Of a stretch of DNA of 64,000 nucleotides, positions 3,641-22,161 are shown piece after piece. The first letter of the stretch is position 1; each line of letters begins with the position of its first letter. The notes beneath the pieces are model-generated. The model was not told where the DNA came from and searched no databases. It saw only the letters and a program-made list of their open reading frames with translations. Source of the stretch: an uncultured bacterium (GTDB lineage: Bacteria; Actinomycetota; Acidimicrobiia; Spongiisociales; UBA5794); NCBI GenBank assembly GCA_963801165.1, contig CAWDDT010000009.1, positions 64,001 to 128,000 of the forward strand, given 5' to 3'. The position numbers were made by a program, and so were the translations under genes.

Positions 3641-3678
3641 GGTGACTCCCTGGGACGAACGGCCGCTATTCGGTTCGA

Positions 3679-3758
3679 GCCCAGGCGCACGGCAACAGAT
3701 CCCAAGGGACCGGGCCGCTCCCTAGTGGTACTCCACCCACAACTCGCCAGTCACGGCC
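3679..3758 (-). ncRNA. ZMP/ZTP (pfl) riboswitch upstream of glyA
   Basis: Minus strand reads GGCCGTGACTGGCG...GGTGGAGTACCACTAGGGAGCGGCC...GCCGTGCGCCTGGGC, the two conserved pfl-motif blocks; lies about 40 nt upstream of glyA, a typical target. Confidence 0.92.
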
Positions 3759-3818
3759 TCGGCGCCGAGAATAGCGTCGTATGGCCCGCAAGCCGGGGAC
3801 CTCGGGACACCCGGTCCG

Positions 3819-19899: not shown

Positions 19900-20619
19900 A
19901 TGCGAGATCTCACTGGTCGGATCGTTGCCATCACAGGTGGGAGCTCGGGGATCGGGGCGGCCACGGCACGGGCGCTCGCCGGCCGCGGGGCCAAGTTGGT
20001 GCTGGGGGCGCGGCATCCCGAGCGGCTCCGCACAATCGTTGATGAGCTCGATGGGGCGGCTGTCGCCGTCGAGATGGACGTTTGCGACCCCGAGGGGGCT
20101 CGTCGTCTCGTCGCCACGGCGGTCGGTTCGTTTGGTGACCTCGACGTGCTCGTGGCCAACGCGGGAGTCGGAACATACGGCGGGATCATGGACAACAGCG
20201 ACGAGCGGCTCCGCGACATGATGGACACAAATGTCGCCGGTACGGTATGGACGGTCCGCGCCGCTGTGCCGCATTTTCTCGAGAGGGGCGAAGGCGACAT
20301 CGTGATCGTGGCGTCGACGGCCGGTCTGCGCAGTGGTCCGAACCAGGCCGTGTATGCGGCGACGAAGTACGCCCAGGTGGGTCTGGCCGGTGGTCTCGAC
20401 CAGGAGCTGCGGCAGAAGAACATTCGGGTAAGCGCCATCTGCCCCGGCGGTGTCGAGACGGAGTTCGCAATGGGTTTCGGGCGGACCCCGGACATGCCCG
20501 TCCTCGCAGAGATGATGCGCCCGGAGGACATCGCGGACGCCATCGTCACGATCCTCACCCAACCCAAGACCATGCGAACTCTGATCTGGTCGATGCGGGG
20601 CATGTACGAACCGGACTGA
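19900..20619 (+). CDS. Short-chain dehydrogenase/reductase
   Basis: 'TGGSSGIG', 'VANAG', 'YAATK'; RBS AAGGAG. Confidence 0.92.
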   Translation: MRDLTGRIVAITGGSSGIGAATARALAGRGAKLVLGARHPERLRTIVDELDGAAVAVEMDVCDPEGARRLVATAVGSFGDLDVLVANAGVGTYGGIMDNSDERLRDMMDTNVAGTVWTVRAAVPHFLERGEGDIVIVASTAGLRSGPNQAVYAATKYAQVGLAGGLDQELRQKNIRVSAICPGGVETEFAMGFGRTPDMPVLAEMMRPEDIADAIVTILTQPKTMRTLIWSMRGMYEPD

Positions 20620-20689
20620 CCTCTCAGCGTGTTGCGGATTTCTGACGCCTCGAAAGCCCGCCGATGTCCGCAAGAACCGGGAGCGAAAC

Positions 20690-20744
20690 TCTCAGGAACC
20701 TCTTAGGTTCTCATTCGGCTGGTCTCAGGTTGGGGAGAGATGAT
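20690..20744 (+). promoter_or_regulatory. Phased TCTCAG/TCTTAG direct repeats (OmpR-family, MprA-like boxes) plus a putative -10
   Basis: TCTCAG 20690, TCTTAG 20701, TCTCAG 20723 (11- and 22-bp spacing); GATGAT at 20739-20744. Confidence 0.55.
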
Positions 20745-20750
20745 GAACGA

Positions 20751-20928
20751 GTCATGGAAACATGACAGACAACCGAATATCGCACGCAGGAGCATCGGGC
20801 TCACTCTCTCCCCTTCCTCCCCTCCCGGCCAATAATCACCGTGAAAACGATGATGAGGCGCCCCGAGAGACCTGCGTGCGAACTCTTCCCCTCAGCCCCG
20901 GAGTCACTACACCGGGGCTGAGTCTCGT
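20751..20928 (+). ncRNA. Candidate structured small RNA (~175 nt)
   Basis: 5' hairpin GTCATG-GAAA-CATGAC; 11-bp stem 20780-90/20871-81; second GAAA hairpin at 20835-54; CU-rich loop at 20804-26; terminal 11-bp hairpin at 20891-20922. Confidence 0.6.
20891..20928. terminator. GC-rich hairpin, probably a bidirectional terminator
   Basis: CTCAGCCCCGG/CCGGGGCTGAG stem between the sRNA candidate and the convergent stop at 20934. Confidence 0.65.
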
Positions 20929-20933
20929 CCGGG

Positions 20934-21158
20934 TCAGTACGGCGCCGGGCCCGTCAGTGCGAGATCCTCAGCGGTGATCGGTGGGATGTCGCCACACACG
21001 ACGGGGAGAGCCGAGCGGCAGGGCTCAGAACCTCGCGAGGGCAGATCCCAGACGAGCACGGTGCCGCACTCAGGGCACCACTCGTACCCCTCATCGCGCA
21101 GCTCGTCGTGGTGACGCTCACGCTCTGCAGTGTGCATGCGCTGGTAGGTATGTTCCAT
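20934..21158 (-). CDS. Small hypothetical protein with CPECG zinc-ribbon-like motif
   Basis: 'GYEWCPECGTVLVWD', two further Cys and a His-rich N-terminus; start chosen at ATG 21158. Confidence 0.5.
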   Translation of the reverse strand: MEHTYQRMHTAERERHHDELRDEGYEWCPECGTVLVWDLPSRGSEPCRSALPVVCGDIPPITAEDLALTGPAPY

Positions 21159-21234
21159 GCAGTGAATGTCGGCAGATTGCATAGAAACTTGAAGTGCCTC
21201 CGTGTATATTTCCATCGTACCTCGTGGGTAGGCT

Positions 21235-22161
21235 ATGTCGATGGGTTTTGCATCCGAGGCAACGGGCTGGCTCATAGACGGCGATGCCTCCATCAGCTGG
21301 CAAACGATGCAGGACCTGCTCAATCGGGCACCCGCGACGGTGGCACGGGAGCGGGCCCGGGTTGCGACCACCGGCTGGGGAAAGCGGCTGTTGGAGAAGC
21401 AGGACGCGGAAGGTACCTGGGCGCATGGCGTCTACGGCCCGAAGTGGATCTCCACCACATACACGCTCTTGCTGTTGCGCCGGCTCGGTATACCGCCCAA
21501 CAGCCTTGACGGCAGGCGAGGCTGCCGGGCGCTGTGGGACCGGATCATCGTCGACGGAGGGGTCACCTGGGCGAACACGGCGGTGATGCCCGATGTCTGT
21601 GTGACGGCAATGTTTCTCGCTCTCGACTACTACTTCGACAACCGCGACCCGCGCCGCGAGGAAGCGCTGGCCTGGATGCTCGATCAACAGCTTCCCGACG
21701 GGGGCTGGAACTGCTCGGCGAGACGCTCCGGGTCGAGCCACGGGTCCTTTCATACGACGATCTCCGTGCTCGAGGCCCTCGCCGAGATCGGCGATCCTGC
21801 CAGTGACACAGCGGCCGGGCGGGGCCGCGAGTTCTTTCTCGGTCACCGGATGTACCGCTCACACCGCACGGGCGAGGTGTCGCACCCGTCCTTCACCAAG
21901 CTGTCGTTCCCGCCGCGCTGGTACTACGACGTGCTGCGTGGTCTCGACTACTTTCGCCTGGTCGACGCCCCCTACGACGAGCGGCTCGACGACGCTCTCG
22001 AGCTCCTCGTCACCAAGCGACGCAAGGACGGTAAGTGGCCCGTGCAGAACAAGCACCAGGGCCGGGTGTGGTTCGACATGGAGACGGGGCGCGAGCCCAG
22101 CCGCTGGAACACGTTGCGGGCGCTCCGCGTGCTCGACCGCTATCAGCCGAGCGCCCGGTGA
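21235..22161 (+). CDS. Hypothetical protein, prenyltransferase/squalene-cyclase-like alpha/alpha toroid
   Basis: QW-like repeats 'QDAEGTW', 'QLPDGGWNC', 'RRKDGKW'; 'PSRWNTLRALRVL'. Confidence 0.72.
   Translation: MSMGFASEATGWLIDGDASISWQTMQDLLNRAPATVARERARVATTGWGKRLLEKQDAEGTWAHGVYGPKWISTTYTLLLLRRLGIPPNSLDGRRGCRALWDRIIVDGGVTWANTAVMPDVCVTAMFLALDYYFDNRDPRREEALAWMLDQQLPDGGWNCSARRSGSSHGSFHTTISVLEALAEIGDPASDTAAGRGREFFLGHRMYRSHRTGEVSHPSFTKLSFPPRWYYDVLRGLDYFRLVDAPYDERLDDALELLVTKRRKDGKWPVQNKHQGRVWFDMETGREPSRWNTLRALRVLDRYQPSAR

Follow-up and report, generated by a model that had tools for sequence, protein, structure and literature searches.

Pyrimidine-rich loops are a recurrent design among bacterial small RNAs, as in 6C, RsaE/RoxS, LhrC and the cuckoo RNAs. 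The cuckoo RNAs, which include ar14/NfeR1 (RF02344) and CcsR of Alphaproteobacteria as well as RepG of Helicobacter, carry loops of the CCUCCUCCC type. In the Actinomycetota, C-rich loops are reported to be used for mRNA pairing by 6C/B11 of M. tuberculosis (PMC6486639) and by 6C of C. glutamicum (PMC5014011). Among the Bacillota, a UCCC motif is likewise reported in RsaE (PMC2790875) and, for LhrC of Listeria, expression driven by a two-component system (PMC4132741). Among the papers listed by a full-text literature search on small and non-coding RNAs of Acidimicrobiia, none dealt with this subject.

The DNA analyzed here, hereafter the window, is a 64,000-nt stretch from the genome of an uncultured member of the Acidimicrobiia (genome G000). 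Its plus strand contains, at approximately 20751-20928, a conserved, structured, non-coding small RNA gene with a conserved promoter architecture, predicted to yield a transcript of ~178 nt. The RNA belongs to a new family, albeit of a familiar kind, namely that of 6C, RsaE/RoxS, LhrC, and the cuckoo RNAs. An earlier note, prepared from the letters of the window alone, had proposed an unannotated, structured, non-coding plus-strand RNA gene at this position; this proposal is supported by the fold, the relatives, the covariation, and the broken reading frames described below, and all sequence features listed in that note are present as described.

The element lies within a 314-nt intergenic gap, flanked upstream by a co-directional short-chain dehydrogenase (SDR) gene (19900-20619, plus strand) and downstream by a convergent, conserved gene for a 74-aa protein with a CPEC motif (20934-21158, minus strand). 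It is present as a single copy in the window's genome by both BLAST and covariance model search, and a repeat or mobile element was ruled out on the basis of this single copy. A leader or riboswitch of the downstream gene was ruled out within the genus because the next gene is convergent. When the whole window was searched with Rfam 15 at gathering scores, nothing was found at the element, the sole match being a ZMP/ZTP riboswitch (RF01750) elsewhere, at 3672-3764 on the minus strand (51.9 bits versus a gathering score of 39). Searching 20550-21050 with all 4227 models at E ≤ 10 produced only chance-level matches to mir-BHRF1-1 (E 4.3) and sR3 (E 4.8), with no model match at the locus for RF01820 (RsaE/RoxS) or any other Rfam sRNA family. 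Similarly, nine relative loci scanned whole at E ≤ 1 gave a single match, a sub-threshold 6C in genome G131.

The minimum-energy fold of 20751-20928 on the plus strand (-71.9 kcal/mol) reproduces the noted architecture, and none of 200 shuffled sequences folds as well (-49.1 ± 4.1 kcal/mol, z = -5.5). The reverse strand also folds well (z = -4.4), so that folding alone cannot assign the strand. At the 5′ end, the hairpin P1 (GUCAUG-GAAA-CAUGAC, 20751-20766) begins 6 nt after a GATGAT hexamer and is followed by a single-stranded motif, ACAACCGAAUA (20769-20779), that is almost invariant in the family, with a mean unpaired probability of 0.45-0.99. The P2 domain (20780-20881) is closed by a perfect 11-bp outer helix, P2 (20780-20790/20871-20881), and contains the inner helix P2b (TCGGG/CCCGA, 20795-20799/20862-20866), a CTCA/TGAG pairing, the short helix P3a (20828-20830/20857-20859), and the GAAA-capped hairpin P3b (20835-20854). 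Between P2b and P3a, the folds leave open a 23-nt CU tract, CUCUCUCCCCUUCCUCCCCUCCC (20804-20826), with two anti-Shine-Dalgarno-like CCUCC cores. A second CU tract, CTCTTCCCC / CUCUUCCCC (20883-20891), forms the linker to a terminator-like hairpin with an 11-bp stem, CTCAGCCCCGG/CCGGGGCTGAG (20891-20901/20912-20922), the loop AGUCACUACA, and a conserved UCUCGU tail to 20928; both this tract and the stem behind it are thus as first described. The hairpin at 20891-20928 also forms the end of the convergent gene. The linker is pyrimidine-rich in most close relatives, with G008, G004, and m78 as exceptions.

The same plan recurs across the family. From 5′ to 3′, it consists of ACAACNGAAUA, a 5′ motif common to nearly all relatives, P2, P2b, 14-27 nt of pyrimidines that invariably include CCUCCC, and a GGCC/GGCU helix with a variable hairpin, followed by the return strands of the helices, an often CU-rich linker, and the terminator hairpin. 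When divergent members were folded separately by minimum energy, the same nesting of helices was obtained. P1 is an optional module, found only in G000, G005, G014, G011, m58, and m61/m64; in members lacking it, either the RNA begins 6-15 nt ahead of ACAAC or the leader is longer and of another kind. The GNRA tetraloops of the earlier note hold for this sequence, where both loops read GAAA, but do not extend to the family, since relatives carry GAGU, CUGAA, CAACA, and other loops instead.

The pyrimidine tract, with its CCUCCC, occupies the same place in all 23 members folded, and its unpaired probability in these folds is 0.52-1.0, versus a molecule mean of 0.37-0.52, in keeping with the initial view that it is unpaired. 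Because the 3′ end of the 16S rRNA of the window's genome reads GGATCACCTCCTTTCT, the tract contains the same anti-Shine-Dalgarno core, CCUCC, as the ribosome of the organism itself, which bears out the anti-Shine-Dalgarno loop proposed from the sequence. CCUCC pairs with any good Shine-Dalgarno sequence, however, and complementarity alone therefore says little.

Among described RNAs, 6C is one of the closest in kind. Both occur in the same phylum; the present RNA would, like 6C, be a short, stand-alone RNA, with a predicted promoter of its own and a terminator-like hairpin. Both also have unpaired C-rich sequence, which in 6C reportedly pairs with G-rich mRNA sites with no known chaperone (RF01066; PMC6486639, PMC5014011). 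In contrast to 6C, whose model consensus comprises two hairpins with about six C or more in each loop, the present RNA holds its pyrimidines in one long internal loop of a ~100-nt covarying domain, has a terminator loop that is not C-rich, and carries an additional invariant 5′ motif. It gives no match to RF01066 even at E ≤ 10 (cut-off 47 bits), and the initial impression that it does not match 6C is in agreement with the Rfam scan, in which no family was found at the locus. RsaE/RoxS and LhrC share with it several unpaired C/U-rich stretches mirroring the Shine-Dalgarno sequence, in Hfq-independent lineages (PMC2790875, PMC4132741). LhrC offers the further parallel of a two-component system, one of which adjoins the RNA gene on its upstream side in 11 of the 17 genus loci, although the window's genome lacks that regulator. 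These RNAs of another phylum nevertheless show no sequence or model similarity to the present RNA and have a different fold, without the single long internal-loop tract. With the cuckoo RNAs, it shares anti-Shine-Dalgarno loops of the CCUCCUCCC type on stable stems, a likeness of design that does not imply descent, and RF02344 (ar14; two or three hairpins with CCUCCUCCC loops) gave no match on 20550-21050 at E ≤ 10.

Searches for 6C and 6C-like RNAs were also extended beyond the locus. 6C was not found in the window's genome; the control missed or under-scored known carriers, so this negative says little. Elsewhere in the same genome, at C5:273369-273486 (locus L124, 220-337, plus strand), lies a second sRNA candidate with CUCCUCCC / UCCUCCUCC hairpin loops, which scores 33.8 bits to ar14 (cut-off 58.8) and whose orthologue in G005 scores 39.4 bits to 6C (cut-off 47). 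The presence of this 6C-like or ar14-like RNA elsewhere in the genome indicates that the RNA at 20751-20928 is not the 6C orthologue, and the organism has at least two anti-Shine-Dalgarno-like RNAs, the second being a candidate. In genome G131 (genus g17), hairpins with CCCCCC and UCCCCCC loops (locus L103, 1573-1661) score 34.2 bits to the whole 6C model (cut-off 47), suggesting a composite or divergent 6C in that genus. These hairpins directly follow a hairpin with a 24-nt CU loop.

Relatives were collected in successive steps. BLAST with the intergenic gap identified relatives at 72-82% identity in three further genomes, all of this genus, so that 4 of the 133 genomes of the family, the window's own included, carry a match; these four sequences were used to build the covariance model R1. 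With R1, 10 of 15 genus genomes matched at E ≤ 1, and for six the E-value was 1e-8 or lower; G002 and G009 were thereby added and, weakly, G008 and G004. The model R2, built from 13 sequences, matched 12 of the 14 other genus genomes, with no match in G003 (66% complete) or G007 (95% complete). Outside the genus, R2 matched weakly in five genomes (G020, G122, G120, G133, and G131, from three genera; E 5e-5 to 0.08) among the 118 that represent the rest of the family. In the order sample, a single genome (G213, of another family; E 0.0012) matched among the 131 from outside the family, and a class sample of 150 genomes added no new relatives. A pattern derived from the alignment retrieved 12 loci from the genome contig collection, of which three were true and already known (G011, G002, G004) and nine were due to chance, as well as 46 loci from metagenome contigs, of which seven carry the RNA and 39 are chance occurrences. 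Six of these seven score with the model; the seventh, L083, was first identified from its CU tract and promoter, a score of 53 bits being obtained afterwards.

The weak matches within the genus (G010, G001, G012, and G006) are considered real because independent marks agree: all four carry the ACAAC motif and the CU tract, share promoter and neighbors with the other members, and have an outer helix that has wholly changed yet is still complementary. G133 and G131, which lack the 5′ motif, may contain a different or 6C-related RNA; a 6C scan of G133 gave no match. In G122 (locus L098), a 16-nt 5′ motif, ACAACTGAATAGCCCG, is tandemly duplicated just upstream of and at the start of the RNA relative.

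The homologue search and covariation analysis that the earlier note had proposed as a check thus yielded relatives, and the stem covaries among them. In the R2 alignment (27 rows, 24 modelled pairs, comprising P2, three P3a pairs, and the terminator), 92.9% of cells pair, and both sides change in 18 of 24 pairs. None of 500 shuffles reaches the observed value, and with the partners slid, no more than 41.8% of cells pair. These figures are to be read with the knowledge that the alignment is model-fitted and leans towards the model, and that four of its rows are reverse-strand matches to the terminator only. Changes on both sides affect 8 of 11 pairs in P2, and 8 of 10 modelled pairs of the terminator hairpin covary. 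MAFFT did not align the inner helices column by column, and they rest on the separate folds and on visible swaps, for instance between UCGGG/CCCGA and CUCUGA/UCAGAG, CCGGA/UCCGG, or CUCGGGG/CCCCGAG.

The region upstream of the RNA is conserved in a manner of its own. Direct repeats with an 11-nt period (20690-20728), consisting of TCTCA (20690-20694), TCTTA (20701-20705), a degenerate third unit, and (G)TCTCA(G) (20722-20728), with the consensus TCTYA, recur with the same boxes and spacing in 17 genus-type loci (16 by a three-box pattern, with visual reading of the first two boxes in G011). These boxes are presumed to be transcription factor binding sites. The array is partially matched in G122, where the promoter design is in common. 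Exactly 10 nt after the last box, all 17 loci have a NANNNT hexamer, here the -10-like GATGAT (20739-20744), in which positions 2 (A) and 6 (T) are conserved, and the intervening spacer is variable in sequence. The distance from the hexamer to ACAAC is 6-10 nt in seven loci without the 5′ hairpin, 15 nt in one, 23-24 nt in the six loci with P1, and 62-75 nt in three loci with another leader. These distances fit a -10 element with a start ~6-7 nt downstream, here at 20751, in agreement with the start and the -10 element first read from the window. ACAAC is kept at any distance from the hexamer, be it 6 or 75 nt, showing that it is a feature of the RNA rather than part of the promoter.

The transcript start was accordingly placed from the promoter, and the end from the terminator hairpin together with the conserved TCTCGT tail. 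A sigma-70 consensus scan and a terminator scan of the locus flagged neither this promoter nor this terminator, and the terminator of the window's genome has no U run. A minus-strand RNA was rejected: it folds well, yet it is disfavored by the 20 G-U cells versus 9 A-C cells in the modelled pairs, by the U-rich tails that follow the hairpin on the plus strand in G131, G133, G008, and G004, and by the side on which the promoter lies. The G-U wobbles of P1 in G005 and G014 are also consistent with the plus strand.

A pattern search of the genome for promoters of this type gave three sites with the loosest pattern, including the present locus. One site, C3:78041-78095 (locus L112), has the same phased TCTCA boxes and a NANNNT hexamer (AAACTT), followed by a ~85-nt leader and a gene for a predicted 208-aa lipoprotein; this gene has no Pfam match and may share a regulon with the RNA.

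The reading favored here, with a probability put somewhat above even, is that of a stand-alone sRNA under its own regulated promoter, whose CU tract pairs in trans with Shine-Dalgarno regions of one or more mRNAs. In this analysis, the RNA would be transcribed from ~20751 to the hairpin at ~20922-20928, and its long covarying stem would keep the ~23-nt pyrimidine tract and its two CCUCC cores exposed in an internal loop, with the single-stranded ACAACCGAAUA on the 5′ side of the stem and the second CU stretch on its 3′ side. The open tract would most likely pair with purine-rich Shine-Dalgarno regions, and the pairing would block ribosome binding or alter mRNA decay, as C-rich-loop sRNAs of other Gram-positive bacteria do, the analogues being 6C, RsaE, and LhrC. 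The transcript ends, the action in trans, and the translational repression are what we infer from the architecture.

The search for targets, by duplex scan and orthologue comparison, yielded no specific conserved target. The genome-wide scan returned thousands of purine-rich sites. The best non-self duplex (-48 kcal/mol) involves a purine tract just before the gene for a 777-aa LPG_synthase_TM/kinase-like membrane protein (C6:214888-217221); this tract is kept only in a 93%-identical orthologue and lies within the coding region in the 43%-identical homologue of G009, and with such limited conservation the gene is a candidate target only. Complements of the 5′ motif occur in the genome at one exact site and 39 sites with one mismatch, at or below rough chance.

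The absence of a specific conserved target in these searches is one of the observations that would fit an RNA working mainly through protein or ribosome binding rather than specific mRNA pairing, either by imitating the anti-Shine-Dalgarno tail of 16S rRNA and so titrating Shine-Dalgarno-led mRNAs globally, or as a sponge for a pyrimidine-binding protein such as S1 or a KH or cold-shock domain protein. Such a mode would also be consistent with a CU tract that is long (14-27 nt), offers several CCUCC registers, and is the best-kept loop in 23 of 23 members, and the lack of enriched genomic complements for the invariant ACAACNGAAUA fits a protein site. On the other hand, no partner protein is indicated by any analysis, the 74-aa neighbor gene occurs without the RNA in three other genera, and published RNAs of like design reportedly act by mRNA pairing (PMC6486639, PMC2790875). 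This mode of action is considered unlikely, though it fares best among the alternatives.

A second alternative concerns the origin of the transcript, which could be the processed 3′ part of an upstream operon mRNA. Genes for a HisKA_3 kinase and a NarL-type (REC-GerE) regulator immediately precede the RNA in 11 of the 17 genus loci (loci L113-L119, e.g., L113 3039-4936, plus strand), and these pairs are 72-86% identical among themselves; in G000, G005, G014, G010, and G013, a dehydrogenase gene, the SDR gene in the window, is found there instead. Reading in the same direction, the upstream gene stops 60-150 nt short of the RNA, and no terminator was seen in between, which would allow such an origin. 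Transcript data bear on the same point. Two salt-marsh metatranscriptomes contain parts of the stretch, and the RNA is partly covered in one of them (X1) by a 265-nt contig of depth 2 from a G005-like relative, which spans 20720-20841 plus 98 nt upstream and 48 nt downstream. This contig shows presence in an RNA library, the contigs by their nature giving neither strand, ends, nor level. It crosses the presumed promoter and stops before the terminator, and therefore fits read-through or DNA carry-over as well as expression; gaps in coverage, such as 20842-20933 in X1 or the entire RNA in X2, do not argue for absence. While passage of the contig through the promoter would suit an operon tail, the upstream gene varies between an SDR and a response regulator, whereas the box and hexamer architecture is kept in 17 of 17 loci, and the fixed 10-nt spacing between box and hexamer, together with the 6-10 nt from the hexamer to the core in seven loci, fits a promoter. 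An operon-derived RNA is thus given only a slightly smaller chance than action through a protein or the ribosome, and both routes to the transcript may coexist.

Control of the RNA by the neighboring NarL-type regulator was considered separately and is unsupported here: no orthologue was found in G000, G005, G014, G010, or G013, where the best matches are 39-46% identical, and these five genomes retain the boxes despite its absence. The region upstream of the kinase itself, compared in seven loci, contains no two-box motif.

The convergent 74-aa gene raises the possibility that the RNA is its cis-encoded antisense partner, with read-through across the shared terminator hairpin allowing pairing that controls stability. 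By tblastn, the gene lies beside the RNA in 15 of 17 genus-type loci, in convergent orientation and usually with 10-30 nt between hairpin and stop codon, and it is covered by contigs from both metatranscriptomes. RNA and gene are both present in 13 genus genomes and neither was found in two (G003 and G007), although genomes of one genus are not independent samples. Against such a partnership, a gene intervenes in G013, where the 74-aa gene is 1.6 kb from the RNA, and in m83, and the RNA is still kept; RNA relatives in genera g7 and g16 have no 74-aa neighbor; and genera g42, g10, and g47 have the 74-aa gene but no match to the RNA (best model score 9.8 bits, filters off). Moreover, the best-conserved parts of the RNA, the 5′ motif and the CU loop, are far from the overlap. 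An antisense role is therefore regarded as improbable.

Within the family, 4 of 30 genera carry the 74-aa gene itself. Its product has a CPEC motif and a GDxPPLT tail, and no Pfam family matched it above threshold. The G005 match is split into two pieces, which looks like a frameshift. No Shine-Dalgarno sequence precedes its conserved ATG, and the gene may therefore be leaderless; a GACATT lies 6 nt upstream. In the genus, it is followed by a gene for a 308-aa prenyltransferase-repeat protein, and the AT-rich region between the two (window 21182-21241), a divergent promoter region, contains two sigma-70-like sites, versus 0.1 expected from shuffles.

A bolder version of ribosome mimicry would make the RNA a signal-controlled, global anti-Shine-Dalgarno mimic, induced by a response regulator through the four-box promoter, soaking up Shine-Dalgarno-led mRNAs with its multi-register CCUCC loop and perhaps partnered by the 74-aa protein, in a lineage that is not known to have Hfq or ProQ. 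This is held to be quite improbable; were it true, translation would tilt towards leaderless messages, which are common in Actinomycetota.

The 71-aa ORF at 20762-20977, which the earlier note had set aside as noise, is open in the window's genome, has no Pfam match, and is broken by indels and stops in relatives; compared frame by frame, no frame is open in all of them, with stops in G005, G014, and G011. That the region encodes a small protein, be it this ORF or a 31-codon frame from the ATGATG at 20740 directly preceded by the Shine-Dalgarno-like GGGGAGAG, or is conserved DNA without RNA function, is very improbable, since frames shift and stop in relatives (the latter frame ends after nine codons in G005 and eight in G014), no Pfam match was found, and substitutions preserve base pairs rather than codons.

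This study adds a well-supported RNA family, with a covariance model, a structure, and a promoter architecture, for the Acidimicrobiia, a widespread class of bacteria from soil, sediment, and salt marsh, most of them uncultured. The family opens no new principle, and provides one further independent case of the pyrimidine-loop design beside 6C, RsaE/RoxS, LhrC, and the cuckoo RNAs. Its four-box promoter, together with the two-component system that adjoins it in most relatives, offers a handle on the controlling signal.
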